Shown here piece by piece: positions 13,268 to 57,566 of a stretch of 64,000 bases of DNA. The notes beneath the pieces are model-generated. The model was not told the origin of the DNA and did no database searches. It saw only the letters and a program-made list of their open reading frames with translations. The DNA is from Chloroflexota bacterium (GTDB taxonomy: Bacteria > Chloroflexota > Anaerolineae > UBA1429). The DNA lies in assembly GCA_034722245.1 (NCBI GenBank), contig JAYENT010000043.1:93-64092 (forward strand), in the 5' to 3' direction. A program made the translations under genes and the position numbers. Numbering within the stretch: position 1 is the first letter of the stretch; each line of letters begins with the position of its first letter.

Positions 13268-13276
13268 GGGAATACT

Positions 13277-15445: not shown

Positions 15446-15451
15446 CGGCCG

Positions 15452-16291: not shown

Positions 16292-16425
16292 TTGCGGCGG
16301 GAACGCAGCAAATTTATGTGATTTTTACTCCCCAGAGACGGCGAGTGCCTCTCATGGCTTGACGACAACACCTTTCCTTCTTTATCATCAATTTGTCCCT
16401 GTGAAGAAGATCTTGGAGGGTTGCT

Positions 16426-23498: not shown

Positions 23499-23527
23499 GG
23501 CCGCTATGGTTCCATAGCGGCCTTTTG
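23499..23527. terminator. Bidirectional terminator between convergent Ldh_2 and GH-like genes
   Basis: GGCCGCTATGG-TT-CCATAGCGGCC followed by TTTT. Confidence 0.65.
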
Positions 23528-42017: not shown

Positions 42018-44758
42018 TACTTCATCTCCATCCAGTTCCTTCCCACGGCAGCATCCACTTTGAGGGGCACATCCAGGGTGTAGGCGTTTTCCATGGTGTC
42101 CACCACCAGTTCCTGCGTTCTGGCCAGCTCATCCTCTGGCACCTCCAGCACCAGTTCGTCATGTATCTGTAGAATCAAACGCCCCGCCAGCTCTCTTTCC
42201 CGCAGCAAATCGTAGAGGCGAATCATGGCGATTTTGAGTATATCCGCCGCGCTCCCTTGGATGGGCATGTTGATGGCTGCCCTCTCCGCAGCCCGTTGTG
42301 CGCGGCTGTTGCCGGCGTCCGTCGCCTTGAGCATGGGAAAGTAGCGGCGACGGCCCATGATTGTCTCCACGTATCCGTGCTCGCGGGCAAAGGCGAGGGT
42401 TTCTTCAAAGTAGGTTTCCACTTGGCTGAAGCGCTGGAAATATGTCTCTATGAACTGACGCGCTTCGTCGATGGATAGCCCCGTACGGGATGCGAGCCCA
42501 TAGGCCGACATGCCGTACATCAGCCCAAAGTTGATGGTCTTGGCCAAGCCCCGCTGTTCCTTGGTCACCTCTGACAGGGGGATATCATGGATCGCCGCTG
42601 CCGTGGTGGCATGAATGTCCTCACCACGGTGAAAAGCGGCTATCATCTCCGGGTCTGCTGAAAAGTGGGCCAATAGACGCAATTCGACCTGGGAGTAATC
42701 GCAGCCAAGCAACACGTGTCCTGGGGGCGCGACAAAGGCGGCCCGCACATGGCGCCCCAGTTCCGTCCGTACGGGAATGTTCTGCAGGTTGGGGTCACTG
42801 GAGGACAGCCTACCGGTGCTCGTGCCCGTCTGATTATATGAGGTGTGAATCCGCCCTGTGGAGGGATTCACGAGATCGGGCAAGGTGTCTATATAGGTGC
42901 TTTTTAGCTTCTCAAGCTTTCTATATTCCAGAATCAAGTTTACGATGGGGTGCTCTTCTGCCAAGTCCGACAGCACGTCCTTGGCCGTGGAGTAGCCCGT
43001 CTTGGTCCGGCGGATGATGGGCAGTTCCAGTTCCTCGAACAACACGCTGCCAAGTTGTTGTGTCGATCGCACGTTGAACGGGTGGCCAGCGTATGCATGA
43101 ATTTGCTCCTCGAGTTGTTCAAGTTGCTCTTCGATCCTGTGGGACATGGTTTCCAGAGCCCGGGGATCCACGGCCACACCGTGTCGTTCCATGCTCACCA
43201 GTACGGGAATCAGAGGCATCTCCATCTCTACAAAGAGGTCCCACTGCTCCCGTTCCTTAAGTTTGGCCTCCAGAACCTCAGCAAGCCGCAAGGTCATATC
43301 TGCGTCGGCACAAGCATAGGGGGCTGCCTCGGCGATGCTGACCTGGGCCATGGTGCGTTCCTGCTGGCCTTTCTTGATCAGCTCCTCGATGGGCGTCATC
43401 TCGATGCCCAGGCGCTGCCAGACCTGTTCCTTGAGACCGATGCCCCGCCCCGAGGGATTTAACAACCACGCCGCGATCATGGTATCGATACAGGGGCCCT
43501 TGACGGGGAGGCCGTGGCGTTCCAGGACGATTATGTCGAACTTGGCATTGTGGAACACCTTGCAGTTCTCGTTCAACAGTACCGGCCTCAGTCGCTCGCG
43601 TACAAGTTCAAGGGGCAACTGCTCTCCCTGTCTTTCCTCGTGGCCCACGGGTATATAGTACGCCTCACCAGAGGATGTGGAGACAGAGATGCCCACCAGA
43701 TCTGCCGTGAGAATATCGAGGCCCGTCGTCTCTGTGTCGATGGCAAAGCGCGGTGCCGCTTTGAGTTCCTCGGTCAGCCGTGCTAGATCGTCCTCAGAGT
43801 CAACCACCGCATATCGCTCTGACGTCTTTTCAGAAACGACCGCCGCCTCGACGCTCTCAAAAAGCGGAAGCTGACCGGGGTCCGACTTTTTCTTACCGGG
43901 GACGCGGTCCGTGAGAGAATGAAAGCCCAGCTCACGGAACAGTTCCATTACTTTGTCGTGGTCAAAAGTTCCCCACTCGCTGTCTTTCAGACGCAAGTCA
44001 ACGTCCACGTCGCGTTCGATAGTGACCAGATGCTTGCTCAACGTGGCAGACTCGTGCCCGTCTTCGAGGGCACTGCGAAACCTCGTTTGCTTCACGTCAT
44101 TCAGGTGTTCATAGACGGCCTCGACCGAGCCATATTCTTTGAGGAGGCGGGTGGCTGTCTTGATGCCCACGCCACGTACGCCGGGTATGTTGTCTGAAGA
44201 ATCGCCCATAAGGGCCTTGAGGTCGATCAACTGGTCCGGCGTTAACCCATATCGTTCCTTCACAGCGTCGACGTCATAGAGCTTGGTATCTCCCAGCGAT
44301 CGCCGTGGCGTCAGCACTTTGACGTCCTCGGAGACAAGCTGAAGGGCATCACTGTCTCCGGTGACGATAACGGTTTCCAACCCCTCTTGCGTGGCTTGCT
44401 TTGACAGGGTTCCCAAGAGATCATCGGCCTCGTAGCCTTCTTTTGTGTAACAAGGGATGCCTAGGGCATCCGCCAGTTTCTTGATGTGGTTGATTTGAGG
44501 GCTCAGATCATCTGGCATCTTGGCGCGGTGGGCCTTGTACTCCTCATATTCGTCGTGGCGGAAGGTACGGCCGCTGTCAAAGGTGGCGATAATGTAGTCT
44601 GGTGACAGGTCGTCAATGGCCTTAAGCAGCATATTCATGAAGCCAAAACTGGCATTCGTGGGTTCCCCAGAAGGACTTGTTAGCGGGGGGATGGCATGAT
44701 ACGCACGATATGCCAGTGCGTGTGCGTCGATCAACATTAGGCGTTTCTTAGAGTTCAT
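42017..44758 (-). CDS. polA: DNA polymerase I
   Basis: 5'-nuclease N-terminus (LMLIDAHALAYRAYHA), exonuclease region FAIDTETTGLD, and polymerase motifs DYSQVELRLLAH, KTINFGLMYGMSAYGL and QIHDELVLEV. Confidence 0.97.
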   Translation of the reverse strand: MNSKKRLMLIDAHALAYRAYHAIPPLTSPSGEPTNASFGFMNMLLKAIDDLSPDYIIATFDSGRTFRHDEYEEYKAHRAKMPDDLSPQINHIKKLADALGIPCYTKEGYEADDLLGTLSKQATQEGLETVIVTGDSDALQLVSEDVKVLTPRRSLGDTKLYDVDAVKERYGLTPDQLIDLKALMGDSSDNIPGVRGVGIKTATRLLKEYGSVEAVYEHLNDVKQTRFRSALEDGHESATLSKHLVTIERDVDVDLRLKDSEWGTFDHDKVMELFRELGFHSLTDRVPGKKKSDPGQLPLFESVEAAVVSEKTSERYAVVDSEDDLARLTEELKAAPRFAIDTETTGLDILTADLVGISVSTSSGEAYYIPVGHEERQGEQLPLELVRERLRPVLLNENCKVFHNAKFDIIVLERHGLPVKGPCIDTMIAAWLLNPSGRGIGLKEQVWQRLGIEMTPIEELIKKGQQERTMAQVSIAEAAPYACADADMTLRLAEVLEAKLKEREQWDLFVEMEMPLIPVLVSMERHGVAVDPRALETMSHRIEEQLEQLEEQIHAYAGHPFNVRSTQQLGSVLFEELELPIIRRTKTGYSTAKDVLSDLAEEHPIVNLILEYRKLEKLKSTYIDTLPDLVNPSTGRIHTSYNQTGTSTGRLSSSDPNLQNIPVRTELGRHVRAAFVAPPGHVLLGCDYSQVELRLLAHFSADPEMIAAFHRGEDIHATTAAAIHDIPLSEVTKEQRGLAKTINFGLMYGMSAYGLASRTGLSIDEARQFIETYFQRFSQVETYFEETLAFAREHGYVETIMGRRRYFPMLKATDAGNSRAQRAAERAAINMPIQGSAADILKIAMIRLYDLLRERELAGRLILQIHDELVLEVPEDELARTQELVVDTMENAYTLDVPLKVDAAVGRNWMEMK

Positions 44759-44810: not shown

Positions 44811-44861
44811 GTGGAATATGCTACGCATATTCCTTGGGAGAATCGCCTTGCGATTCTCCAC
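44811..44861 (-). repeat. 51-nt twin-hairpin palindromic element, full copy, intergenic
   Basis: GTGGAATATGC-TAC-GCATATTCC-TTG-GGAGAATCGC-CTT-GCGATTCTCC-AC. Reverse complement of the copies at 51696 and 54646. Starts 53 nt upstream of the polA start. Confidence 0.85.
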
Positions 44862-45001
44862 AGAGATTTGTGCTTGGGGCAGGCAGGTGCTATGGATGCC
44901 AACCCATTCCTCATGCGCGCAGCGTGCAATGGCCCACTTCTACTGCTCTTGCCTCGTCTGATCGTTTTGGCAGGCTTCATGTCCCCGGCGCTTCCATCTG
45001 C

Positions 45002-45032
45002 TTGACAGGATGTATCCAAGGATATATATAAT
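45002..45032 (+). promoter_or_regulatory. Sigma-70-like promoter for the Zn-ADH gene
   Basis: TTGACA, 17-nt spacer, TATATA (TATAAT occurs 2 nt further on). Confidence 0.55.
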
Positions 45033-45076
45033 CAGATGCCGTAGAGGGATTGGAATGGCGCTTAGGAGAGGATTTC

Positions 45077-46153
45077 ATGAGTGGTAGTGAGATGCTTTGT
45101 GCAGTAATGTACGGTGTGGGTGATGTACGTATAGAAAGCCGCCCCGTGCCACAACCTGCCCCGAATGAAGTATTGGTGCGCATCAGGCGCGTGGGGGTTT
45201 GTGGAAGCGACGTGCACTATTTTACCCATGGGCACATCGGCGACTTTGTCGTAGAAGATCCCTTGCTCCTGGGCCATGAGAGCGCCGGCGTGGTGGAGGA
45301 GGTAGGGAGCGCGGCAGAGAAGTTTGCTCCGGGTGACCGCGTGACCATTGAGCCGGGCTATACGTGTGGCCAGTGCTTTTACTGCAAGACGGGCCATTAC
45401 AATCTGTGCCCCGATGTGGTGTTCATGGCCACGCCTCCCATCGATGGCGCCTTTTGTGAGTACGTGGTCTGGCCTGAGGATTTTGTATTTGCCTTGCCGG
45501 ATAGCATGACATTTGAGGAGGGGGCCATGATGGAACCCCTCTCTGTAGGGCTGTGGGCCGCGAAGCGCGGCGAGGTGAAGCCCGGCGATAGCGTGGCCAT
45601 CTTTGGATGTGGCCCCATCGGCCTGCTAACCTTGCAGGCAGCCAAGGCGGCAGGGGCTACCACCCTGATCGCTGTGGATATCGAGGAGTATCGCCTGCAG
45701 CATGCGCGCCGTCTGGGGGCAACGCATGTGGTGAACGACCGCCAAGGGGATGCGGTCGACCATATAAGAGAGGTTACCAGCGGGCTGCGTGGTTTTAGGC
45801 CAGATTATAGTGGCGTGGACGTGGCTTTTGAGACGGCGGGGGCCGCCGCTGCGACGCGGAATACCTTGGCCGCCGTGCGACCCGGCGGCGTGGCCGTTCT
45901 CGTAGGGCTACCGCCCGAGGCCATGGTGGAGATCGACCTGGCGGCCGCATCGAGCAAGGAGATCGACATCCGGGGACAGTTCCGCTATGCCAACCGCTAT
46001 CCTCCTGCCATCGCCCTGACTGTGGATGGCAGAATCGACGTCGCCTCCTTGGTGACCCACCATTTTCCCCTGGAGGAAGCGGCAGATGCCCTGCGTTTCT
46101 CCGACGAGCACAAGGCAGAGTGTCTCAAGGTGATGGTGGACGTAAGTGACTAA
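45077..46153 (+). CDS. Zinc-dependent alcohol/polyol dehydrogenase (sorbitol/threonine dehydrogenase-like)
   Basis: GVCGSDVHY, GHESAGVVEEVG and GCGPIGL. The ATG at 45077 follows GGAGAGG. Confidence 0.85.
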   Translation: MSGSEMLCAVMYGVGDVRIESRPVPQPAPNEVLVRIRRVGVCGSDVHYFTHGHIGDFVVEDPLLLGHESAGVVEEVGSAAEKFAPGDRVTIEPGYTCGQCFYCKTGHYNLCPDVVFMATPPIDGAFCEYVVWPEDFVFALPDSMTFEEGAMMEPLSVGLWAAKRGEVKPGDSVAIFGCGPIGLLTLQAAKAAGATTLIAVDIEEYRLQHARRLGATHVVNDRQGDAVDHIREVTSGLRGFRPDYSGVDVAFETAGAAAATRNTLAAVRPGGVAVLVGLPPEAMVEIDLAAASSKEIDIRGQFRYANRYPPAIALTVDGRIDVASLVTHHFPLEEAADALRFSDEHKAECLKVMVDVSD

Positions 46154-46209
46154 TTTGGGTGGTTGTGAGGGCCTGCTGTGGTCCGGCGTATCCTCAACGT
46201 CCAGCCCCG

Positions 46210-46247
46210 AGAAGCCCTACTTGATGGTAAGGCTTCTTTCTGATTTT
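46210..46247 (+). terminator. Possible terminator after the Zn-ADH gene
   Basis: 7-bp stem AGAAGCC / GGCTTCT with a 14-nt loop, then TTCTGATTTT. Confidence 0.35.
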
Positions 46248-46294
46248 GGAACCCGTTTCCTGTTCCAGCATCCTTTGTTCAGGGGGTGAGCGGT

Positions 46295-47731
46295 ATGAAT
46301 TTCATCTTTTTCTTTCCCGACGAGATGCGGGCGGAGAGCGTCTCCTGTTACGGGCACCCGCTAGTCAAGATGCCCAACTATGACCGGCTGGCGGAGGAAG
46401 GCGTGCGATTTGACCAGTGTCACGTCCAGCATCCCGTCTGCTCCCCTTCGCGCTGTAGCCTGATGACGGGGTGGTATCCTCACGTGCGAGGCCATCGCAC
46501 CCTGTGGTATCTGCTGCGGACGGATGAGCCCAGCCTGTTTCGCTATCTGAAAGAGGACGGCTACCACATAGAGTGGCATGGTAAGAACGACGTCTATGCT
46601 CCCGACTATTTCCCCTTGGCCGTCGATCATTGGGACGCCTCGGAGGGCGGCCATGCGGGCATCAATCCCTATGAACAGGATGAGGCTGCCTATTACAGCT
46701 TTCTTTGCGAGCCCTTTTCAGGGGGAGCGTATGACACCCGCGACATGCGCAACGTCCAGGATGGGCTGGGATTTCTGTGTTCTCGTCATAGGGGCGATAG
46801 GCCTTTCTTTCTGTATTTCCCCCTCTCCATGCCACATCCCATGTACTCCGCGCCTGAACCGTATCATAACATGTATGATCCTGACGATCTATCCCCTCTG
46901 CGCCCGGCCGATCTGGAGGACAAGCCGGATTTCCATCGTCTGATAAGGGAATACCGCCGCCTGGACAGCCTTCCAGAAAGTTTCATGAAAAGGATTCAGG
47001 CCGTCTATTTGGGCATGAACAGCTATGTGGACTGGATGCTGGGGCAGGTGTTAGATGCCCTGGATGAGACGGGGCTGGCAGAGGAGACCACCGTCTTTGT
47101 CTCCTCGGATCATGGTGACTGGGCAGGAGATTACGGTCTGGTGGAAAAGTGGCCCAGCGCCCTCGACGATACGCTGACGCGGGTGCCTCTCTTGGTGCGC
47201 ATGCCGGGTAACAAGGCGGGACACGTGATCCAGGAGCCGGTCGAGTTGTTCGACGTCATGGCCACCGTGCTGGAGTTGGCGGGGATAGAGGCGCGGCATA
47301 CCCATTTTGCGCACTCGTTGCTACCACAACTGCGGGGGGCAGCGGGGGACCCAAAGCGTGTGGTATTTGCGGAAGGAGGCTATGATCCCCATCAACCCCA
47401 CTGTTTCGAGGGGCGATGGGGCGACTATGGCATCCCCCGTTCGCCAGCGCATATCTACTGGCCCAAGGGATTGCAGCAGCAGGAGCATCCGGAAAGCGTC
47501 TCTCGTGCCACCATGATGCGCACGATGGACTATAAGCTGATTTATCGTCCCACGGGCATGAGTGAACTCTACGATCTGCAGAACGATCCGCGCGAGTTAC
47601 ACAACACCTATTACGATCCGGGATATGCAGCGGTGCGCAGGGATATGGAGTCTCGCCTGCTGGACTGGTACGTTCACACGGCGGACGTGACGGCCTGGGA
47701 CGAGAATCCGAGAGGCTTGCCTATAGCATGA
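46295..47731 (+). CDS. Sulfatase (Cys-type, formylglycine-dependent)
   Basis: CSPSRCSLMTGWYPH (C-x-P-x-R) and SSDHGDW. Confidence 0.85.
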   Translation: MNFIFFFPDEMRAESVSCYGHPLVKMPNYDRLAEEGVRFDQCHVQHPVCSPSRCSLMTGWYPHVRGHRTLWYLLRTDEPSLFRYLKEDGYHIEWHGKNDVYAPDYFPLAVDHWDASEGGHAGINPYEQDEAAYYSFLCEPFSGGAYDTRDMRNVQDGLGFLCSRHRGDRPFFLYFPLSMPHPMYSAPEPYHNMYDPDDLSPLRPADLEDKPDFHRLIREYRRLDSLPESFMKRIQAVYLGMNSYVDWMLGQVLDALDETGLAEETTVFVSSDHGDWAGDYGLVEKWPSALDDTLTRVPLLVRMPGNKAGHVIQEPVELFDVMATVLELAGIEARHTHFAHSLLPQLRGAAGDPKRVVFAEGGYDPHQPHCFEGRWGDYGIPRSPAHIYWPKGLQQQEHPESVSRATMMRTMDYKLIYRPTGMSELYDLQNDPRELHNTYYDPGYAAVRRDMESRLLDWYVHTADVTAWDENPRGLPIA

Positions 47732-47748
47732 GGTATCCCGCAGGGTGG

Positions 47749-48264
47749 TCAACTCTCTTTGGTATAGTAGTCTGGTTCATAGCGCAGGGCTTTGCCAGAT
47801 AGGGGGCACACTTCCACGCAAAGTGGCCCCTCTTCCCGTTCGTTGCAGAGGTCGCACTTGATGGCCAGCCTCTTATGCGGATGCCTTTTAGGTATGTCCC
47901 AAGGGCATGCATCCCGGCACTGCATGCAGCCCACGCAGAGCTCCTCATCTATGATCACCGCACCGGTGCGCGCATCGCGTGACATGGCGTCAAGGGGACA
48001 GGCCTCGATACATGGGGCCTCCTCACATTGGGAGCAGATGGTCGCCGAGATGGGATCGGTTTCCTTGAACTCGTCGAAGTGGATATTGATACGGGCCATG
48101 GAAGCGCCGGCTTTCCCCTCGTGGTATATAGAGCACGCAATCTCGCAGACCTTGCATGTACGACACGATTGGGGATCAAAGATGATTCGTCCCCTGGCGA
48201 TCGATCCGACGGCATCGGATTCTACAGAGCCTCGTTGCTTGCTATTGGGATATTCTGTCATCAT
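47749..48264 (-). CDS. 4Fe-4S ferredoxin-type protein, DmsB/NrfC-like with four cluster motifs
   Basis: CRTCKVCEIAC, CSQCEEAPCIEACP, CVGCMQCRDACP and CDLCNEREEGPLCVEVCP. Confidence 0.8.
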   Translation of the reverse strand: MMTEYPNSKQRGSVESDAVGSIARGRIIFDPQSCRTCKVCEIACSIYHEGKAGASMARINIHFDEFKETDPISATICSQCEEAPCIEACPLDAMSRDARTGAVIIDEELCVGCMQCRDACPWDIPKRHPHKRLAIKCDLCNEREEGPLCVEVCPLSGKALRYEPDYYTKES

Positions 48265-48289
48265 CCTCTCTTTTCATAAAGGGCTGTCC

Positions 48290-48317
48290 GTGGGAGAATC
48301 GCAAAGCGATTCTCCAC
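48290..48317 (+). repeat. Solo half-element (GGAGAATCGC-AAA-GCGATTCTCC hairpin only), intergenic
   Basis: GTGGGAGAATCGCAAAGCGATTCTCCAC lies between the ferredoxin start and the GNAT stop. Confidence 0.75.
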
Positions 48318-48321
48318 TTAC

Positions 48322-49458
48322 TCAAACGGCTTTGCTATAAACCTGCCAGCGCTTGTATATGCGCGCTCCCAAGCGCTGCGCCAGTCTTGGCGTCATGGGA
48401 TTATCAGCCCCCGTGATGGACATGTCCAGCCAGCGATAGCCCTTGGCCAGGGCGCGTTGACACATCTCGTGGAGCATAAGAGCCGCCACGCCGCGTCCCC
48501 AGTACCAGGGAAGGACGAGGATGCTCTTGATGCAGAGACACTCGGGGCGTCTGCGCATGGCGCACCAGGCCCGAAGCTTGTCCCAGGGATACCGCAACCC
48601 GTTGGCGTGTATTAGGACCTCGTTAAAGTTGGGTAGCCCGAGCAAAAAGCCCACCTCGCGGCCGTCTATTGTGCCGAAAAGCACCAATTCGGGATCAATG
48701 ATCTCCTCTATACCCCTTGCCAGGGACTCCAGTCTGTCGCGATCCCATGCCACGTGATCGGGGAGTACCCTTAAGGTCTGGTTGAGCAGATGCACCACGC
48801 GGCTCACTTCGCCGTCCCAGTCGTCCGCATCCGCACCGCGAACGGACGCTCGCCCACGCTCGCGTACCTTGTTAGCCACACGGTGGAGTTTGGCTGCTGG
48901 GCCCTCTGGGTCGGTAGCTGCTTCCAGAGACGCTTCGAAGGCGATGTTTTGCTCTCTGCCAGGCACGAACCCGTAGCGGTCAACGAATTCTCGATAGTAG
49001 GGCGGCGTGTGTCCGCAAAAGAGCGTCGGCGGACGGTCGTACCCCTCGAGGAGGATGCCGTATCCGTCCTCATAGTCAAGGTTGAAAGGACCATAGAGGT
49101 TGTCCAACCCGTGACGGCGGGCCCACGTCGCAGCATGGTCCCACAGGGCGGCGGCGACCTCATACTCCCGAACGTAGTGATTGAAACCGAAGATGCAGTC
49201 GCGGCCCCCCAGTTGCTGGTTCCGTGCATCATCTTTGGCGCAGCAGATCGTCCCCACAGGCTGGTTCCCTTCCCAGGCGATGAAAAGCTCTGCCGTGGCG
49301 TGTTGGAACCACGGGCCGTGCTCAGGATCCAGGCGCTTGTCCCACTCGCTGAGTATGGGGGGGACCCACAGCGGGTCGCCACGAAAGACGCGCCAGGCAA
49401 AGGTCAGGAAAAGTCGACGCTCCCGCGGCGTATTGACTGGTCGAACCGCCAAAGGCAT
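48322..49458 (-). CDS. GNAT family N-acetyltransferase (large, about 378 aa)
   Basis: Acetyl-CoA loop-like WYWGRGVAALM near the C-terminus. Overall GNAT-type call made by eye. Confidence 0.55.
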   Translation of the reverse strand: MPLAVRPVNTPRERRLFLTFAWRVFRGDPLWVPPILSEWDKRLDPEHGPWFQHATAELFIAWEGNQPVGTICCAKDDARNQQLGGRDCIFGFNHYVREYEVAAALWDHAATWARRHGLDNLYGPFNLDYEDGYGILLEGYDRPPTLFCGHTPPYYREFVDRYGFVPGREQNIAFEASLEAATDPEGPAAKLHRVANKVRERGRASVRGADADDWDGEVSRVVHLLNQTLRVLPDHVAWDRDRLESLARGIEEIIDPELVLFGTIDGREVGFLLGLPNFNEVLIHANGLRYPWDKLRAWCAMRRRPECLCIKSILVLPWYWGRGVAALMLHEMCQRALAKGYRWLDMSITGADNPMTPRLAQRLGARIYKRWQVYSKAV

Positions 49459-49463
49459 TCTGC

Positions 49464-50840
49464 CTATTCTCCCTCAACTTGCTGCCGGAGGCGGCGTTGC
49501 GCGAGGGCTCGGCGCACGGCGAGGTGCTCCTCCCTGCTGATGGGATACGCGATAGCGAAGGCGATGCCACCGCAAAGGAGCAATGCAGGCATTGGTCCCG
49601 TAAAGGCACGAATCATCGTCAAAGCCCTTTTGCCCTGGGAGGCCGCATTGGGCACATAGCCGGACCAGTCTAGGGCTATGCCAAGAAGGAACAGTGCTAG
49701 GCCTGTGGCCGCTTTCTGCATAAGCATAAGCAGGCTATAGAACATGCCCTCGTGTCGCTGCCCCGTCAGGAGTTCATCCCACTCGATAGCATCGGGGATG
49801 ATGGCCCAGGGTAGCACATGAGCTGCGCTCACACCGATGCCCGCCAGAGCCGCCAGGGCAAAGATGACGAGTGGAGGGGTCTCCGGGCTCGTGAGAACGA
49901 GAACTATTTGCACAAAGCACCAAAAGGCGATCCCCCCTATATAGGCCAGGCGTTTGTTGCTATGACGCGATATCCAGTCCCAGAGGGGAAGAACGAGGAG
50001 CGCCGTGACAAAGACGACGGCAAAGATGGCGTCGCTTTGGTTTTCCATGTGCAGCCAATATTTGAGAAAGTACAGAAGAACCGCCTGGATCACGTTCACA
50101 GCCAACCACGTGAGAAGGAACAGTCCGATGCTCAGCAGGAAGGGACGATTGGCGAGGATAGCCTTCAAGGACTCTCGCAAGGATGGCGAGCCCACCGCTT
50201 CCGGCTCATGACGCTCTTGGGTGCCCAGAAAGGTCACCAACAGGGGCGTTGCGCTTGCCAATGCAAAGACGACGCCATTGAGCCAGACGCGGGAGCTGTT
50301 CTCTGGTCGAAATGACCCGATGATCAACCAAGGCACGGTAAAGGCTATCAGGCTTCCCAGGATCGAGAAAGCCATGCGGTACGTCGTCAGCGTCGTGCGT
50401 TCATCGTAGTCTGGCGTCAATTCAGGGGTGAGGGCAAAGTAAGGCATGTAGACGAACGTGGCCGCCACGTCGTAGAGCACGTAGGCGCCGACATAGAAGG
50501 CAGTGAGCCCTAGTTGGCTCCGAAAAAAAGGTTTCCACCAAAGCAAGGTAAAGGTAACGCCAAAAGGGATGAACCCAAAGAGCAGAAAGGGCCTGCGTCT
50601 CCCCCATCGGCTGGACGTGCGGTCGGAGATGTGTCCGATGATGGGGTCGTTGATCCAATCCCACTGCTTGGCGATCATCATCGCCATCCCCGCCAGGGCG
50701 GGGCGCAGCCCCACTACATCAGTGAGAAACAGCAAATAGTATACACCTATCAGGGTGCTTGTGAGGCTAAAGCCTATGTCACCCAAACCATATAGGAGTT
50801 TGCTTCGCCGAGAGAGATAACTGCGTGTGGGCTCAGACAA
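49464..50840 (-). CDS. MFS transporter, glycoside-pentoside-hexuronide (GPH) cation symporter family
   Basis: LLYGLGDIGF, DRTSSRWGRRRPF and about 12 TM segments. TTG start at 50840 preceded by AAAAGGGGGG. Start uncertain. Confidence 0.8.
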   Translation of the reverse strand: MSEPTRSYLSRRSKLLYGLGDIGFSLTSTLIGVYYLLFLTDVVGLRPALAGMAMMIAKQWDWINDPIIGHISDRTSSRWGRRRPFLLFGFIPFGVTFTLLWWKPFFRSQLGLTAFYVGAYVLYDVAATFVYMPYFALTPELTPDYDERTTLTTYRMAFSILGSLIAFTVPWLIIGSFRPENSSRVWLNGVVFALASATPLLVTFLGTQERHEPEAVGSPSLRESLKAILANRPFLLSIGLFLLTWLAVNVIQAVLLYFLKYWLHMENQSDAIFAVVFVTALLVLPLWDWISRHSNKRLAYIGGIAFWCFVQIVLVLTSPETPPLVIFALAALAGIGVSAAHVLPWAIIPDAIEWDELLTGQRHEGMFYSLLMLMQKAATGLALFLLGIALDWSGYVPNAASQGKRALTMIRAFTGPMPALLLCGGIAFAIAYPISREEHLAVRRALAQRRLRQQVEGE

Positions 50841-50990
50841 AGAAGCCCCCCTTTTCGACCACCATACCTTGATGCATTGACCGTATTTTAACGACTTGCC
50901 GTGACAACCGCAACTGGCGGTGTCGCTCTGACGCCAAGACGGTGGAATTGTGCTACAATGCACATGGTGCTGGGAGGGGGGAGAGAGACG

Positions 50991-52004
50991 ATGAAAAAAT
51001 CGTGTCTGTTTCAGGTTTTTCTATTCGCCGTTCTTGTCTTCGTGGCGACTATGTTTCTGCGTGGCTACATCAGGGGCTGTCGCGGCTCACAGGAAGATGC
51101 GGCGGTCGTCGGCCGTCGCGTTGGGGGCTCGGTTTCCTCGCAGGACGGGCAAGGAGAGGACGCCGATGAATCAAGAGCCAGGGGAACGGGCATAGAGGGC
51201 CTTTCCTCGCTTCCGGTCAGTAGTCTTATGATTGATGCGGCCCGGGTGCGGGGCCTGGCGGTCAGCGAACGCTTCTTTTTTGTTTCATCCTTCGATCCCA
51301 ATCGGCGTGTGGGCTATTTGTACAAAATCGACCGTGAAAGTCGCGGCGTGGCCCAAATTCGTACAGTGAAAGAGGATGGGCGATATCAACTGGGGGGACT
51401 CTATGTCAGCGCTGATTCCCTGCTGGTCCCCCTGGCCGGTGACGAGACCGATCCCGTTAGCTCCATCCTCACCTTGGATACCCGCTACTTGGAGATTCAA
51501 GATGCGTTCAGCGTCGGTTGTCGTATACAGGCTGTGGCTCGGGGGGCAGATGGTTTGATCTATGGCTATAGTCCCGATGCGAGCGTTTTCTATGCCTGGA
51601 CGCCCACTGGAGAGGAGGTGCGCAAAAGGACAATCTATACCGAGGCGGAATACCATGATGTGGAGTTTTTGCAGGGCAGCCTCGTCTGTGCGGGGGTGGA
51701 GAATCGCAAAGCGACTCTCCCAGGGAATATGCGTAGTATATTCCACGTGGACGGGCAAGGCGGGGTCATAGACGTCATCGATCCCCAGACTTTCACTTTG
51801 CTCGTTCGCCACCGGTGCTACACCCGCACGCCGGACCAGCAGTGGGTCACCAGCCGGGGGTTCGCCTTCTTCGACGGCATGTTCTACTTTGTGCCCGACG
51901 AAGGCCACTTTCCTACATTAATGACGTATGTGCTGGACGGGGTCACCCTTTCCGAGTACGTTCCCAGCGTGGGTCAGGGAGTCGAGTCTCTGGGAGTTCA
52001 GTGA
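50991..52004 (+). CDS. Hypothetical membrane-anchored protein, possibly beta-propeller; carries an in-frame 51-nt palindromic element
   Basis: ATG after GGGAGGGGGGAGAGAG, and an N-terminal TM helix (LFQVFLFAVLVFVATMFL). No family recognised. Confidence 0.5.
   Translation: MKKSCLFQVFLFAVLVFVATMFLRGYIRGCRGSQEDAAVVGRRVGGSVSSQDGQGEDADESRARGTGIEGLSSLPVSSLMIDAARVRGLAVSERFFFVSSFDPNRRVGYLYKIDRESRGVAQIRTVKEDGRYQLGGLYVSADSLLVPLAGDETDPVSSILTLDTRYLEIQDAFSVGCRIQAVARGADGLIYGYSPDASVFYAWTPTGEEVRKRTIYTEAEYHDVEFLQGSLVCAGVENRKATLPGNMRSIFHVDGQGGVIDVIDPQTFTLLVRHRCYTRTPDQQWVTSRGFAFFDGMFYFVPDEGHFPTLMTYVLDGVTLSEYVPSVGQGVESLGVQ
51696..51746 (+). repeat. 51-nt twin-hairpin palindromic element, full copy, in-frame inside the hypothetical CDS
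   Basis: GT-GGAGAATCGC-AAA-GCGACTCTCC-CAG-GGAATATGC-GTA-GTATATTCC-AC. Translated as VENRKATLPGNMRSIFH. Confidence 0.85.
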
Positions 52005-53176
52005 TCGTGCGGGCCACGCCATATCCCCTTTTCCGTGTCCCAGTCCCATCCCGGCGCATCGACGTGAGCCTCCAACCTGGGCCACCCGGCCTGAATGCGG
52101 GCTTGTGTAACATCCCACGGGCGAACGCCGCTGGTGGCATCGGCCGTCTCCACGTTGCACGCTCCGACGGCCACCGCCGAGGTGGCGGCTCCCTCGGGCG
52201 TCTGGCCGCGCAGTAATCCGCCTAGAAAACCAGCGATGGTCGTGTCTCCAGCGCCTACAGTGCCTGCGACCTCCACCTTGAAGCAAGGAGCCCACAACTC
52301 GCGCTCCCGCCAGTTCTTGAGAGACGTTGGTGTCCCGCGCCCAAGGTCGTCTTCAATCTTGCCGCTTCGCATATAGAGCCCCCTGTGTCCCAGTTTCAGC
52401 ATAACTATCGCTGCCCCCAGGGAGAGCGCTTCTTGCGCTAGGGAGGCGATGCGCCCGGGTGCCAAGGCCTCGATCAAGCCGTCCTGCCCGATGGAATTGA
52501 CCATCTCGTTATATTCATTCTTGTGCAGCATATAGAACAGTTCTTCGACGCTGGGGGCAAAGATGTCCACATAGGGTAGGGTGCGAGCGAGTATGGAACG
52601 CCAATCTGCCCTGCCACTTGGCCGGCTGGGATCGGGCATGGCCATATCCAGCGAGGTGGTTGTTCCGTGCTCCTTGGCATCTCGAAAGATGGTGGCCAGC
52701 GCACGTCCTCCATCCACATACATGCGGCGCATGGCCGGCGGATAGCCAAAATGGAAGAGCCTAGTCGTATCCAGAAGAGGCACTGGGATGTCGTCGGGGC
52801 CAAATGTGTCGTTCGGACCGGGGTAGTGCAGGAAGGTGCGGTCCACACCGGGAGGATTGATGACCAGCGTGTAGGAGCCGCCCTCGCCCTGCGCAATGGC
52901 CAGGTCTTGTACCAGTTTCTCGCTCCTCGCTTCCAAGATGCGATAGGGCAACTGTCCTATGTGGTCGTCGCCGATACGGGCCACGAGGCGCACGTCCAGG
53001 CCGAGCCTGTGCAGCGCCAGACCGGTATTGGAGACGGCGCCCCCGGTGGAGATCACCGCGGCGCCCACCTCTGTGAGGTGTCCAGGTGCGAGAAAGCTAT
53101 CCGATCGCGCCGAGGCGGGCGGTATCTCTGGAATGATGTCTACGCATAGATGGCCCGCTACAAGCACGTCGAACAT
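51998..53176 (-). CDS. PfkB/ribokinase family carbohydrate kinase
   Basis: DVLVAGHLCVD, NTGLAL and TVGAGDTTIAGFL. Confidence 0.8.
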   Translation of the reverse strand: MFDVLVAGHLCVDIIPEIPPASARSDSFLAPGHLTEVGAAVISTGGAVSNTGLALHRLGLDVRLVARIGDDHIGQLPYRILEARSEKLVQDLAIAQGEGGSYTLVINPPGVDRTFLHYPGPNDTFGPDDIPVPLLDTTRLFHFGYPPAMRRMYVDGGRALATIFRDAKEHGTTTSLDMAMPDPSRPSGRADWRSILARTLPYVDIFAPSVEELFYMLHKNEYNEMVNSIGQDGLIEALAPGRIASLAQEALSLGAAIVMLKLGHRGLYMRSGKIEDDLGRGTPTSLKNWRERELWAPCFKVEVAGTVGAGDTTIAGFLGGLLRGQTPEGAATSAVAVGACNVETADATSGVRPWDVTQARIQAGWPRLEAHVDAPGWDWDTEKGIWRGPHDH

Positions 53177-53363
53177 GGTTGCCCTCCTCGGTAGTGTGTG
53201 CGTCTTCCTCTATTATGTAGCGGGTGTGGAATCCTGGCAAAGGGCTATAAGCTGTCGTCGCTTTCAGATTGTAATGGTCGGTGGTTGCTGTTATGCTAGA
53301 TTTCAGGATGTTCACTGTTGTCACGATGATTGATCCATACCGCATTACGTGAGGAGGACGCAT

Positions 53364-55343
53364 ATGTCTGCGAGAGAGCTTACGCCCCTGTCGCTGGATA
53401 GAGTAGAGATCAATGGCCCGTTCTGGGGCCACCGGCAGGCCGTCAACCGGGAGGTGACGCTTCGCGCCGAATACCAGCACTGTAAAGAGACGGGGCGCAT
53501 TGACGCCTGGAAGCTGGATTGGGAGCCAGGGATGCCCAACCCGCCGCACCACTTTTGGGATTCCGACGTGGCCAAGTGGCTGGAGGCCGTGGGCTATACC
53601 CTGGCGACGCATCCGGACGAGGAACTGAAAGCACGCGCCGACGAGGTCATTGATATGATCGCTGAGGCACAGCAGGACGATGGCTATCTCAATATTCACT
53701 TCACTACCGTAGAACCCAGGAATCGCTGGGCGAATCTGCGCGACATGCACGAATTATATTGTGCCGGCCACCTGATGGAGGCCGCCGTGGCCTACTATGA
53801 GGGCACGGGAGATCGCCAGTTGCTGGACGTGCTTTGCCGCTACGCCGATTATATCGACTCGGTGTTTGGGCCCGGAGAGGGCCAAAAGCGAGGCTACCCT
53901 GGTCACGAGGAGATCGAACTGGCGCTGGTCAAGCTTTATCGTGCCACAGGCAAGGCCCGCTATCTCGATCTGGCTACGTTCTTCATCGATGAGCGGGGAC
54001 GTCAGCCCCACTATTTTGATATAGAGGCCAGAAGGCGCGGCGAGGGTCCGGGCGACTACCGCTTTGGAACTTACGACTATGCCCAGGCCCATCTGCCCGT
54101 TCGTGAGCAGACCACGGCGGAGGGCCATGCGGTCAGGGCCATGTATCTTTATAGTGGTATGGCCGACGTGGCGGCCGAGACCGGGGATGATAGCCTGCTG
54201 GCCGCCTGCGAACGTCTGTGGGAGAACGTGACGCAGCGCCGTATGTACGTCACCGGCGGCGTCGGTTCGTCCTCTCACGGGGAGCGCTTCACCATCGATT
54301 ACGACCTGCCCAACGATCTGGCCTATGCAGAGACTTGTGCGGCCATCGGCCTCGTATTCTGGGCGCATCGCATGCTGCAGTTTGAGGGCGATGGGAGGTA
54401 CGCTGACGTCATGGAGCGCGCTCTGTACAATGGCGTCCTGAGCGGCGTGTCCCTCAAAGGCGACAAATTCTTTTACGCCAATCCGCTGGAGGCGATTCCC
54501 GCGCTATACGAGGCGCGCCCCGATCTCTTTGGCAGGGATGCCATCTCTTACACGCGACAGGGCTGGTTCAGCTGTGCGTGCTGCCCGCCCAACCTGGCGC
54601 GCCTCATCGCCTCCCTCGGACAATATATCTACTCGGAAAGCGAGGGTGGAGAATCGCAAAGCGATTCTCCCAAGGAATATGCTGCGCATATTCCCGAGGG
54701 GATATACGTGCACCTGTACGTCGGGGGCAGCGGAACCTTTGACGTCGACGGACGGGAGGTTGTCCTCTCCCAGGAGACGCGTTATCCATGGGAAGGTGAG
54801 GTGACGATTACCGTGCAGCCCGAGGCGCGGGTGCGCTTCCCTTTGGCTCTGCGCATACCGGGGTGGAGCCGGGGGGCGACGCTGCAGGTCAACGGCCAAC
54901 CCGTGGACGTGGCGTCACAGTTGGAGCGGGGCTATGTGAAGCTCGAGCGCGTGTGGGAGCCGGGCGACCGCGTCGTGCTCGATCTCCCCATGCCCGTGGA
55001 GCGTGTGGAGGCGCACCCATCGGTTGCTGAGGATTGTGGACGTGTGGCCATCCAAAGGGGCCCCCTCGTCTACTGCCTGGAGCAGGTGGACAATGGTCCC
55101 AACCTGCGCGGTATCGTCCTTCCTGCCGATGCCGAACTGCAGGCGACCTTTAAGGAGGGTCTTCTCGGCGGGGTAGTGGCCATCGAGGGCGAGGCCAAGA
55201 GGCGAGACCGGGGGCAATGGGACAACGCTCTGTATAGGACAGTACCGTCCGCGTCGGAGACAGTGCCCATCAGGGCCATCCCCTACTATGCCTGGGCCAA
55301 CCGAGAGCCTGGTGAGATGCTGGTGTGGATTCGGCAGGGGTAG
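53364..55343 (+). CDS. Glycoside hydrolase family 127 (DUF1680, beta-L-arabinofuranosidase-like)
   Basis: Typical GH127 sequence with the conserved CACCPPN cysteine motif. The ATG at 53364 lies 7 nt after GAGGAGG. Confidence 0.85.
   Translation: MSARELTPLSLDRVEINGPFWGHRQAVNREVTLRAEYQHCKETGRIDAWKLDWEPGMPNPPHHFWDSDVAKWLEAVGYTLATHPDEELKARADEVIDMIAEAQQDDGYLNIHFTTVEPRNRWANLRDMHELYCAGHLMEAAVAYYEGTGDRQLLDVLCRYADYIDSVFGPGEGQKRGYPGHEEIELALVKLYRATGKARYLDLATFFIDERGRQPHYFDIEARRRGEGPGDYRFGTYDYAQAHLPVREQTTAEGHAVRAMYLYSGMADVAAETGDDSLLAACERLWENVTQRRMYVTGGVGSSSHGERFTIDYDLPNDLAYAETCAAIGLVFWAHRMLQFEGDGRYADVMERALYNGVLSGVSLKGDKFFYANPLEAIPALYEARPDLFGRDAISYTRQGWFSCACCPPNLARLIASLGQYIYSESEGGESQSDSPKEYAAHIPEGIYVHLYVGGSGTFDVDGREVVLSQETRYPWEGEVTITVQPEARVRFPLALRIPGWSRGATLQVNGQPVDVASQLERGYVKLERVWEPGDRVVLDLPMPVERVEAHPSVAEDCGRVAIQRGPLVYCLEQVDNGPNLRGIVLPADAELQATFKEGLLGGVVAIEGEAKRRDRGQWDNALYRTVPSASETVPIRAIPYYAWANREPGEMLVWIRQG
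54646..54696 (+). repeat. 51-nt twin-hairpin palindromic element, full copy, in-frame inside the GH127 CDS
   Basis: GT-GGAGAATCGC-AAA-GCGATTCTCC-CAA-GGAATATGC-TGC-GCATATTCC-CG. Contributes GGESQSDSPKEYAAHIP. Confidence 0.85.
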
Positions 55344-55355
55344 CGGGTTGGATAT

Positions 55356-55385
55356 GGCACAGGGAGAACGTCCACTCCCTGTGCC
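55356..55385. terminator. Hairpin between convergent GH127 and isomerase genes
   Basis: Perfect 10-bp stem GGCACAGGGA / TCCCTGTGCC with a 10-nt loop. Weak U-tract. Confidence 0.45.
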
Positions 55386-55395
55386 ACGCGTGTTC

Positions 55396-56370
55396 TCACG
55401 CTTCCAGCAGCTTGGCGCTGAGGTAATCGAGCACTTTTAGCTGGCTGTCTTCTTCTTCGATCATAGTTTCTATGCTGTCCAGATCCGTTTGCTCCAGGAA
55501 GGCCATCATGCGCTTCAGCATGGTCGTGTTGGCCTGGAATGCGGGCACGGGATCCAGTTGATGAGCCGCGATGTCGGCCCCCAGCCATCCCTCATAGCCG
55601 ATGCGGTCCAGCGTATACAGTAACTCCAGCCACTCCCAGAGGTGAACACTGCCCGAGACCATGTCCCAGTCGCCGCCATCTCCCGGGTTGTCGTTGCTGT
55701 GCATGTAGAACAGCCTGTCCTTCCTGGCCAGCAAGGTCGCCGCCTCGGCGGGCGATTCCTGTGCGGCAAAGGAATGCCCTATGTCCAGATTTGCCCCCAT
55801 GTTGGGTTTGTCCACTTCGGAGCACACGAAGAGCATCTTGCCCACGCTATTGAGCAGGGGCTTGGCCTCCATGTCATGGGGTTGGTATTCCAGTGCGAGT
55901 CGCACGTCATCACGATAGGTGGCCACCTCTTTCACCGTCTCGATGAACCGCTGCCAGGCGGCCCCATGGTCGATCTCGAAGGCATACTGGTATCCTTCGG
56001 CCAAGGGGCACGTGGTGACCAGGTTGGCGCCCAGTTCTGCGGCAATGTCCATCCCCGTGCATAGACGTTCCATGGCTTTCTCTCGCGCTTGCGCCGAGCG
56101 CGCCGAGAGGGCGCCATAGCGAAAGTACGTGGCATCCTTGATGTCCACGTTGACGGCGGAAAGTTCCAGGTCGTGCGCTTTTAGAAGGCGCTCTGCCAGT
56201 GCGACGGCCTCCAGATCGAAGGGGTATTTGAGCTCGATGCCGTCGAGCCCGTCGATCTGGGACACAAGGTCGAACTTTTGCTCCAGCGTGCGGTCGGGCT
56301 GGTACGTCGTATAGCCATCGTTTTGAGCGCCAAAGAAGGCGGCGTTTGCGGATAATTTCCAACGTCTCAT
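55396..56370 (-). CDS. Sugar phosphate isomerase/epimerase (xylose isomerase-like TIM barrel)
   Basis: LEYQPHD, DIGHS and HSNDNPGDGGDWDM metal-site-like motifs. Confidence 0.8.
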   Translation of the reverse strand: MRRWKLSANAAFFGAQNDGYTTYQPDRTLEQKFDLVSQIDGLDGIELKYPFDLEAVALAERLLKAHDLELSAVNVDIKDATYFRYGALSARSAQAREKAMERLCTGMDIAAELGANLVTTCPLAEGYQYAFEIDHGAAWQRFIETVKEVATYRDDVRLALEYQPHDMEAKPLLNSVGKMLFVCSEVDKPNMGANLDIGHSFAAQESPAEAATLLARKDRLFYMHSNDNPGDGGDWDMVSGSVHLWEWLELLYTLDRIGYEGWLGADIAAHQLDPVPAFQANTTMLKRMMAFLEQTDLDSIETMIEEEDSQLKVLDYLSAKLLEA

Positions 56371-56422
56371 GTTTTCACCTCGAGTAGTCTTCTGAGATTG
56401 TTGCCGATTCGTGAATGGCGGT

Positions 56423-57379
56423 CTAGATCAGGGAGTACAGGTAAGGGACGATGCGGGATGGGTCGCGCGCTCCCATCATCGCTTCCATCTCGTCCTCGTC
56501 GATGCGGTCCGTTATCTCTTCCAGTTTCCGCGTCATGTGAGTTACGGCGTTGAAATTGGCCACGGTGTCGATTTCCTTGGGGAAGACGTCAAAGCCGTAC
56601 CAGTCGTCGTCATAGCCCACCTTGCGCAGCGTGTAAAAGAACTCCACGAACTCCCACAGGTGGTAGGCGCCCGGTATCATGTCCCAGTCCCAGCGCCCAT
56701 CGTTGTCGTTCAGGTGAACGTAGAACAAGCGATTGGCGCGGGCCAACAGGGCAGCCGATTGGGCAGGGCGCTCTCCGCCATATAGCGCGTGACCGATATC
56801 CAGGGTGACACCCAAGTTGTCGGCGTCGACTACCTGGCAAAAGGCCGCCGTCTCGCCAGCCGTCCCAAAGAGACAGCGCGCACGGGGATCGCTCCGCTTG
56901 TATTCGATGCAGATCTTGACGGCAGGATTATAGGCGCAGATCTCGGAGAAGGACTGGGCCGCATAGTCGTAGGCGCGAATATAGTCCATCTCGAAGGGGT
57001 AGTCCGTGCCGTCGTTCAACGGGCAGGTGGTGATGCGATAGCAGCCCAACTCCGCCGCTAGGTCCACGGCCCGCTTCAGATCGTCCACGACTTCCCCTCG
57101 CTCCGCGGCAGATTCAGCGCTGAAGGAGCCGCGCCACCATTTGCCCGTGCGCCGCGAGCGAAAGTTGATGGCCGATACGCCAAAGCCGTATTCGTTCAAG
57201 AGGATCTTTAGCTCCTGGATATCGCCAAAGTCTCGCGGATAGGCCAGTTCCAGCCCATCGACCCCCTCTATCTGAGAGGCCATCCCGAATTTCTTTTCCA
57301 GATCGCGATCCTCCTGGTAGGTCATGTAGCGGTTCTTGCAGGCACCTAAAAAGGAACTGATGATGGCCAGTCTGTTCAT
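56423..57379 (-). CDS. Sugar phosphate isomerase/epimerase (xylose isomerase-like TIM barrel), paralog of the adjacent gene
   Basis: IEYKRSDP, DIGHAL and HLNDNDGRWDWDM. Collinear with 55396-56370. Confidence 0.8.
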   Translation of the reverse strand: MNRLAIISSFLGACKNRYMTYQEDRDLEKKFGMASQIEGVDGLELAYPRDFGDIQELKILLNEYGFGVSAINFRSRRTGKWWRGSFSAESAAERGEVVDDLKRAVDLAAELGCYRITTCPLNDGTDYPFEMDYIRAYDYAAQSFSEICAYNPAVKICIEYKRSDPRARCLFGTAGETAAFCQVVDADNLGVTLDIGHALYGGERPAQSAALLARANRLFYVHLNDNDGRWDWDMIPGAYHLWEFVEFFYTLRKVGYDDDWYGFDVFPKEIDTVANFNAVTHMTRKLEEITDRIDEDEMEAMMGARDPSRIVPYLYSLI

Positions 57380-57501
57380 AGCGTGGTTCCTCCTCTATCC
57401 TAGCGTTCTGTCTTTCCCTCTCGTTGTGGGCATTATGTCATAAATGGGGGAGCCTCACAAGTACGAAATGCTGTTACGTCTTATTTGCGGCATCATTTTC
57501 C

Positions 57502-57530
57502 TTGTGCTGTTCTCGCTATGCTGCTAGAAT
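57502..57530 (+). promoter_or_regulatory. Sigma-70-like promoter for the SMP-30 / Gfo / URO-D / sulfatase gene string
   Basis: TTGTGC, 17-nt spacer, TAGAAT. Confidence 0.4.
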
Positions 57531-57533
57531 AGG

Positions 57534-57566
57534 GTGGAATATAATCCTTGTGGAGATTGAGACGCG
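57534..57566 (-). repeat. Possible decayed copy of the palindromic element
   Basis: GTGGAATAT-AA-TCCTTGTGGAGATTGAGACGCG aligns with the 44811 copy if half of each hairpin is deleted. Weak. Confidence 0.25.

Follow-up and report, generated by a model that had tools for sequence, protein, structure and literature searches.

A probable REP/BIME-type family of twin-hairpin elements in Anaerolineales, with in-frame insertions in protein-coding genes

How does one short palindromic sequence come to stand, with the same ends, in front of polA and inside the reading frames of two other genes of the same contig? The question is raised by a 64,000-nt stretch of DNA (GenBank assembly GCA_034722245.1, contig JAYENT010000043.1, positions 93 to 64,092), analyzed here at its full length and called the window. 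It is part of a contig of an Anaerolineales metagenome-assembled genome (MAG), and its genes, according to Pfam, serve chiefly carbohydrate use and housekeeping. An earlier note, made from the letters of the window alone, had described a dispersed 51-nt twin-hairpin element and likened it to repetitive extragenic palindromes (REPs) and Rickettsia palindromic elements (RPEs). We read it as a new family of the REP or bacterial interspersed mosaic element (BIME) type in Anaerolineales, which behaves like RPEs. The reading that it is a non-autonomous mobile family of REP/BIME (or REPIN, for REP doublet forming hairpin) type, presumably moved in trans by an HUH-Y1 transposase, has in our estimate a probability of about 0.6.

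Architecture of the element and its copies in the window

Hairpin 1 has the form GGAGAATCGC-NNN-GCGATTCTCC and occurs at four sites of the window (44837-44859, 48293-48315, 51698-51720, and 54648-54670, the third with one stem mismatch), for which dinucleotide shuffles give an expectation of 0.00 matches. Hairpin 2, GGAATATGC-NNN-GCATATTCC, occurs at three sites (44813-44833, 51724-51744, and 54674-54694; 0.03 expected), each time at 3 nt from hairpin 1. The three full 51-nt copies and the one single-hairpin site of the earlier note are thereby confirmed, far above the shuffle expectation, and its account of the architecture also holds in the full copies: GT, a 10-bp stem with a 3-nt loop, a 3-nt linker (CAA or CAG), a 9-bp stem with a 3-nt loop, and AC. 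In every copy of the window, the hairpins have GTGG at their outer foot. Joined by 3 nt in inverted arrangement, hairpins 1 and 2 make up the 51-nt element, a heterodimer whose GTGG feet point outward.

The first full copy (44811..44861, minus strand) lies between the divergent genes polA (42017-44758, minus strand) and ADH, encoding an alcohol dehydrogenase (45050-46153, plus strand); both of its stems are perfect and, the distance from position 44811 to the polA start (44758) is, as previously stated, 53 nt. The second (51696..51746, plus strand) lies within a DUF6454-like gene, where it reads as VENRKATLPGNMRSIFH in frame +1, and has one mismatch in each stem. The third (54646..54696, plus strand) has two perfect stems and lies within a GH127 gene, where it reads as GESQSDSPKEYAAHIP(E) in frame +3. 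A solo hairpin-1 unit (48290..48317, minus strand; GT GGAGAATCGC TTT GCGATTCTCC CAC) occupies the intergenic space between a GNAT stop codon (48322) and a ferredoxin start codon (48264).

Folded as single-stranded DNA (ssDNA), the two intact dimers reach -18.4 and -18.2 kcal/mol (z = -7.8 and -6.1, respectively), and the 51696 copy with its mismatched stems folds more weakly (-11.4 kcal/mol). The 54646 copy is indeed free of stop codons in all six frames, and the other two full copies carry one TAG each, in frame +3. All window copies share one orientation relative to local transcription. The four of them fall within 9.9 kb, and a profile built from six copies finds none in the remaining 54 kb; because of this clustering, the density of four to five copies per 64 kb, from which a probable genome-wide abundance had been deduced, cannot be extrapolated. 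A possible decayed copy at 57534-57566 has to be abandoned, as the segment matches the corresponding orthologous promoter sequence in two relatives with no indel in the alignment and is missed by the six-copy profile. A scan of the whole window against Rfam at the gathering threshold gave no match, and a literature search for the stem sequence itself returned unrelated primers only.

Empty, half-filled, and filled sites in sister genomes

Syntenic contigs are available from sister genomes, namely, L040 (GCA_964567975.1), L041 and its Logan twin L042 (GCA_046538105.1), and L043 (GCA_041685395.1). Four-fold synonymous identity among the compared genomes is 0.60 to 0.69. At the polA site, both L040 and L041 are empty, with ACAAC running directly into AGAGATTT, and the window has exactly 51 nt between these two halves, the junction being ambiguous by 2 nt only. 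In the DUF6454-like gene, exactly 17 codons (51 nt) are missing from L040, L041, and L042. The GH127 site shows three states: it is empty in L041 and in 17 more distant homologues, it holds hairpin 1 alone (27 nt or 9 codons, with one stem mismatch each) in L040 and L043, and it holds both hairpins in the window. The empty sites thus bear out, independently of the window, the exact length of 51 nt that had been proposed, and they establish discrete ends, since exactly 51 nt are present or absent in otherwise colinear sequence; the element is not part of a longer duplicated segment. We conclude that it has precise ends, that it inserts both between and within genes, and that it has inserted repeatedly since these Anaerolineales species diverged, with no flanking target-site duplication at any junction for which there is an empty site.

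Because the tree of the four GH127 genes is nearly a star (quartet support of at most 53%), a single insertion with later gain or loss of the second unit is indistinguishable there from repeated insertion. The hairpin-1 stems of the three species agree at 19 of 20 positions, and none of the 6 third-codon positions differs; with a gene-wide three-way third-position identity of 0.50, the P value for this conservation is ∼0.015 to 0.02. Derivation of the window's hairpin 2 from local sequence was rejected, as the same hairpin 2 stands at three unrelated sites whose flanks do not match. An assembly artifact was also rejected, as assemblies made independently in different projects contain the same element, altered there by substitutions and compensatory changes.

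Gene content differs near both intergenic copies. In L040 and L041, the ferredoxin gene directly adjoins the MFS gene, and the GNAT gene (48322-49458, minus strand; region 48264-49463) is absent. Homology to these two genomes ends exactly at the solo unit at 48290..48317, so that the hairpin lies at one border of the segment in which the GNAT gene was gained or lost. On the polA side, L040 and L041 have an aldo-keto reductase gene between polA and ADH (1855-2874 in L040) that is missing from the window; it is replaced by ∼210 nt of unrelated sequence (44862-45075), with the breakpoint ∼10 nt beyond the 44811 copy.

In-frame insertions in host genes

Two of the three full window copies are in-frame insertions in protein-coding genes, and to this extent the RPE-like label fits better than the earlier note could know. 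The first host gene (50991..52004, plus strand) encodes a DUF6454-like protein that begins with a membrane or signal segment and is conserved in sister MAGs, with orthologues in L040 (precomputed PF20055 match), L041, and L042. Its identities at the three codon positions (0.77, 0.83, and 0.56) indicate coding constraint. The second (53364..55343, plus strand) encodes a GH127 beta-L-arabinofuranosidase of 659 aa, as assigned with Pfam and PDB entry 4qjy. Pfam places the catalytic domain at residues 19 to 424 and the middle beta-sandwich at residues 451 to 548 of the 664-aa open reading frame (ORF), and the insert falls exactly between them. Alignment with 4qjy, a Geobacillus GH127 structure (E = 6e-231), leaves the insert as a 17-residue gap.

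In the AlphaFold (AF2) model of the GH127 protein (mean pLDDT, 72), the insert is coil between two strands, with pLDDT values of <50 at residues 429 to 442. In both host genes, the insert is predicted to add a 17-residue surface loop to the protein, and codon-level comparison suggests that host genes with an insert remain under coding constraint. Three different reading frames are used by the intragenic copies. In the genes analyzed here, the commonest frame gives a hydrophilic peptide rich in Gly, Ser, Asp, and Pro, and GESQSDSPKEYAAHIPE and VENRKATLPGNMRSIFH are examples of the peptides from element-bearing genes.

Repeated insertion and decay in a GH106 rhamnosidase gene

A GH106 rhamnosidase gene carries insertions at four sites across six relatives. 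The orthologues in L006 and L027 are 81% identical and have their 17-residue inserts at different places, so that each gene supplies the empty site for the insert of the other. The dimer of L006 is unique to that genome. The dimer at site 2 is found in L027 and L080, and the site is empty in L006, L077, and L079. All five of these close relatives share an old remnant (alignment columns 281 to 290), of which 5 to 10 residues are left: L006 has kept both termini (GTGGAGA...CATATTCCAC), and the four others have differing in-frame internal deletions. The remnant provides a decay series for intragenic copies, in which old copies decay via point mutation and in-frame internal deletion.

The fourth site of the GH106 gene contains, in L079 (3632-3689) and in P0125, an unrelated 51-nt palindromic in-frame insertion, EFVPLHVDKDQMVTQRK, with 9-bp arms TTCCTTTGC and GCAAAGGAA. 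This palindrome is absent from the other relatives, and no repeat of it was found in the sequences compared.

The family in related Anaerolineales

In a scan for exact hairpin 1 with one genome per species, we found five sites in the L040 MAG and two in the L041 MAG, both scanned whole, as well as matches in another Anaerolineae MAG. At least 10 further sites are spread over six related assemblies, so the further copies that the earlier note anticipated do exist in related Anaerolineales MAGs. All six verified full 51-nt copies in relatives lie in long reading frames, five of them in Pfam-confirmed genes. Intragenic copies occur in L005, L006, L027, L031, and L080; that of L005 is in the N-domain of an FGGY kinase, and that of L031, in a PEP-synthase-like gene, appears as an 18-residue gap in alignment with PDB entry 5hv2. 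The FGGY kinase of the window was tried as an empty-site control for the L005 insertion and discarded, since the two are paralogues of only 28% identity and the comparison is unusable.

The stem of hairpin 2 is preserved through compensatory changes. Variants with paired substitutions are GGGATATGC/GCATATCCC in L005, GGAACATGC/GCATGTTC in L006, and GGAATGTGC/GCACATTCC in L080, and an alignment of eight dimers has changes on both sides in 6 of 10 pairs, with 93.8% of the cells pairing; none of 500 shuffles reached the observed values. The foot is GTAG in hairpin 2 of L006 and in the L036 variant, and it is degenerate in some relatives, with GC, TC, or AT before GGAG. Orientation is not constant either, the copies of L005 and L030 being antisense.

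The two units are not obligate partners. Hairpin 1 is joined to unrelated hairpins in L008 (twice), L030, and L031, and hairpin 2 is found alone between genes in L077. Single units can thus stand by themselves, beside a second unit, or within the loop of a hairpin that is already there. The last arrangement is seen in L080 (2605-2660), where the palindrome GGGGTGCCC...GGGCACCCC, which resembles a terminator and stands just past the GH106 stop codon, has a single hairpin-2 unit, GTGGAATATGCTACACATATTCCAC, in its loop; the joint stem of ∼22 bp folds at -43 kcal/mol as RNA.

Insertion junctions and their targets

We compared the start of the element with the flank that follows it and found one-sided homology of 2 nt at the polA site, 5 nt at the DUF6454 site (GTGGA), 9 nt at GH106 site 2 in L027 (ATGGAGAAT), and 0 nt in L006. 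Across five junctions, the flank beside the hairpin-1 end tends to resemble the element terminus (GTGGA or ATGGAG). The native empty sites read CG(C/T) before and ATGGA(G/A)G after the insertion point at GH106 site 2 and GT(A/G)GAC after it in the DUF6454-like gene, compared with GTGGAG at the element start. The resemblance at the junctions is therefore largely native, because it is already present in the empty sites. In the GH127 gene of the window, hairpin 2 follows ...TCTCCCAAG and ends in ...ATTCCCGAG. Insertion tends to favor spots beside sequence similar to the terminus of the element itself, and such sequence includes the foot of a unit already in place. Resemblance to an arm is evidently not enough to make a target: the GH127 gene of L041 (10353-10385, residues ∼118 to 128) contains by chance a full 10-nt hairpin-1 arm in its native sequence GAACCGGAGAATCGCTGG (EPENRW), and no insertion is present there.

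Hairpin 1 in other phyla

A search of 596 Gb for exact hairpin 1 returned matches in many phyla, at 39 loci in genomes and 31 in metagenomes, most of them intergenic, for example, upstream of a hicA or an EamA gene. A search of viral contigs gave 0 matches for hairpin 1 and likewise for two control hairpins of matched composition, a result that offers no calibration of chance for bacterial genomes. We treat the 70 cross-phylum matches as unexplained and not as one family.

Two groups of these loci have features of their own. A Dus (tRNA-dihydrouridine synthase) gene with an in-frame hairpin 1 (GES..DSP) is found in a Spirochaetales MAG and two metagenome contigs (L035, 3340-3420; L051, 2640-2720; and L061). 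Hairpin 1 is followed there by a stem of up to 18 bp (perfect in L051). The 3' arm of this stem overlaps with coding sequence that is native to Dus, and at least the IAQ codons of the arm align to solved Dus structures (RPFLIAQIWG). The arrangement looks like an inverted duplication of host sequence beside the hairpin. In Lachnospiraceae (L001, L010, L017, L029, L034, L038, and others), the hairpin-1 stem terminates a separate multi-hairpin element of ∼110 to 150 nt with the motif ...GTGAGAAGAACTTCTA...AAGAAGTTCTACGG...CTTTCTCAC..., present in up to four copies per MAG and mostly upstream of genes.

Comparison with known palindromic elements

The REP-like label given to the element fits, as the units are 23 to 28 nt long with a GT[G/A]G foot, form an inverted dimer, and leave no target-site duplication. 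With the REP, BIME, and REPIN systems served by REP-associated tyrosine transposases (RAYTs), the family shares hairpins of 20 to 40 nt, the GT[AG]G foot, and outward-facing inverted dimers (PMC3733652, PMC6006769). Further likenesses are the presence of several unit types per genome, the clustering at other hairpins, the insertion without target-site duplication, and the intercistronic unit, here at 48290. Unlike in those systems, the window and ∼0.6 Mb of related loci yielded neither a RAYT nor a REPtron, the dimer partners differ in sequence and are joined by 3 nt, and intact copies are apparently few in relatives. REPs and BIMEs are typically extragenic, whereas two of the three full window copies and the copies of L005, L006, L027, L031, and L080 are intragenic; intragenic REPs are nevertheless documented (PMC3733652).

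A published parallel to the intragenic dimers is found in Opitutus terrae, where GTGG-tagged, tightly spaced REP dimers are often intragenic and in frame (PMC3733652). Families GTAG-17, -19, and -20 of this bacterium have a tag degenerate to GTGG, dimers 1 to 2 bp apart, and many in-frame gene copies that add peptides, and some genes are hit repeatedly, as GH106 is here. They differ from our family, as far as the published description allows comparison, in their host (Verrucomicrobiota versus Anaerolineales of the Chloroflexota) and in their stem sequences, and their intragenic dimers encode 20 to 30 residues, versus 17 here (PMC3733652). In-frame copies have also been described for Rickettsia RPEs (PMC3733652). 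Like our element, RPEs (RPE-1 to RPE-8) are palindromic repeats that sit in frame in functional genes, at tolerated surface positions, and differ in presence between sister species. RPE-1 measures ∼100 to 150 nt, and RPE-4 and RPE-6 carry a CGTC tag. The Anaerolineales element, in contrast, has 51 nt and a GT[G/A]G tag, and its host, judged from the window genes, is a free-living carbohydrate degrader and not a genome-reduced obligate intracellular parasite.

IS200/IS605 elements and their gene-less derivatives similarly have a hairpin at each end, seamless empty sites, and no target-site duplication (PMC6006769). In both cases the target resembles the element's own end, as expected if one guide reads both. 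Unlike IS200/IS605 elements, ours has no conserved one-sided target of 4 to 5 nt in five junctions, has no tnpA or tnpB, and is far smaller than the derivatives described.

Mechanism of spread and alternative explanations

In REPs, the published guide consensus that directs cleavage by the REP-associated tyrosine transposase is GT[AG]G (PMC6006769). We propose that the mobilizing enzyme is presumably an HUH-Y1 (RAYT-like) transposase acting in trans. Such an enzyme would recognize the folded hairpin together with the GT[AG]G guide and would insert the element into ssDNA beside sequences like the element's own terminus. A filter would then act within genes: with 17 codons, largely stop-free, and a hydrophilic peptide, insertions may be tolerated in surface loops and interdomain linkers, and purifying selection would remove the others. 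We infer that the element needs no host function.

Several observations weigh against a REP/BIME-type family moved by such an enzyme. No Y1, RAYT, or IS200/IS605 TnpA gene was detected in the window by Pfam (50 of 52 long ORFs), and a phmmer search with E. coli RayT, a single divergent seed and hence a weak test, found nothing among 4,666 six-frame ORFs from the window (all those of at least 60 aa) and ∼0.6 Mb of related loci. The statement of the earlier note that the window has no transposase or RAYT-like gene is thus upheld by both methods, and the search for RAYT and IS200/IS605 TnpA genes that it recommended yielded nothing in the window or in the related loci. There is no common target tetranucleotide across the five usable junctions, and junction homology of up to 9 nt is also expected from template switching. 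Hairpins 1 and 2 differ in sequence, whereas the classical REPIN is built from the same REP twice; distinct REP types are, however, combined in the BIMEs of E. coli. Finally, the two sister MAGs scanned whole contain few intact copies (5 and 2 exact hairpin-1 sites), compared with hundreds in a classical REP family.

The likeliest of the alternatives, though still an unlikely explanation, is template switching that needs no transposase. A nascent strand would stall near a hairpin, anneal by microhomology to another copy, copy it, and switch back, strong hairpins both provoking the stall and giving the annealing surface. The variable junction homology (0, 2, 5, and 9 nt), the native targets that resemble the element terminus, and the addition of units beside existing units or within hairpin loops are consistent with this process, and so is the fact that neither Pfam in the window nor the RayT search revealed a transposase. 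The Dus gene of another phylum, in which up to 18 nt of the adjacent native coding sequence are repeated in inverted form after hairpin 1, has the form of a fold-back-type product. However, two of the five junctions have only 0 to 2 nt of homology, and a constant unit of 51 nt bounded by GT...AC is copied in every event, whereas ragged, variable segments would be expected. The conserved GT[AG]G foot, moreover, has a known role in enzyme-guided cleavage (PMC6006769).

It is quite improbable that a host function keeps the hairpins, as mRNA stabilizers, translational pauses, protein-binding palindromes, or useful peptide loops, and that selection has spread them. The near identity of the GH127 hairpin-1 stems in three species (19 of 20 positions; P value as above), the uniform orientation of the four window copies relative to local transcription, and the covariation of hairpin 2 could be taken as signs of such a function. 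However, covariation is equally expected if mobility requires the hairpin, and orientation varies in relatives, with antisense copies in L005 and L030. The host genes and sites are not related to one another (the linker of an enzyme, a protein rich in beta structure, a promoter region, and the spacer between two cistrons), the use of three reading frames means that no single peptide is selected, every site has a sister species without the insert, and old copies decay and shrink.

We consider highly improbable a scenario built around hairpin 1 as a 23-nt selfish hairpin without its own transposase. It would spread by hairpin- and microhomology-guided templated insertion at replication forks and would seed palindromes by fold-back copying of adjacent host sequence, as in Dus, each new dimer then being mobile; the cross-phylum 10-bp stem would be due to descent or transfer. 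If this were true, the occurrence of the same stem in Anaerolineales, Spirochaetales, Lachnospiraceae, and others would not be chance. The least probable explanation is a conventional MITE (miniature transposable element with inverted repeats) whose inverted termini GTGGA...TCCAC would be recognized by a DDE transposase: the element is indeed non-coding and dispersed with inverted-repeat ends, but its junctions with empty sites have no fixed-length target-site duplication, its 51 nt are below the usual 70 to 300 nt (PMC3733652), single units of 25 to 28 nt also stand alone, and Pfam identified no DDE transposase among 50 of the 52 long ORFs of the window.

Other features of the window

The only recombinase-type gene of the window (18432-19382, minus strand) encodes an Xer-like tyrosine recombinase, of which only the N-terminal SAM-like domain passed 1e-6 in Pfam; the gene shows no sign of linkage to the hairpin elements. 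Of two adjacent LysM genes (12158-14542), the first ends in one LysM domain and the second has four, and these LysM repeats account for a five-copy family of 74-nt direct repeats at 13115-14469. They are followed by type IV pilus genes (14552-17580) for a PilM-like protein, a prepilin peptidase, and a T2SSE ATPase. A perfect 10-bp hairpin with a 4-nt loop, GGCCGCTATG GTTC CATAGCGGCC (23499-23522), lies between convergent genes that end at 23468 and 23563, and it is probably a bidirectional terminator unrelated to the element family.

Significance for Anaerolineales and for REP-type elements

The in-frame colonization of genes by REP-type hairpins, best known from Rickettsia and Opitutus, extends to free-living Anaerolineales (Chloroflexota). 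The empty, half-filled, filled, and decayed states at orthologous sites constitute an unusually clean comparative record, and the series informs how loops of 9 to 17 residues join enzymes and then erode, as well as how the elements choose their targets. Such inserts inflate apparent protein diversity and can mislead the alignment-based annotation of MAGs.

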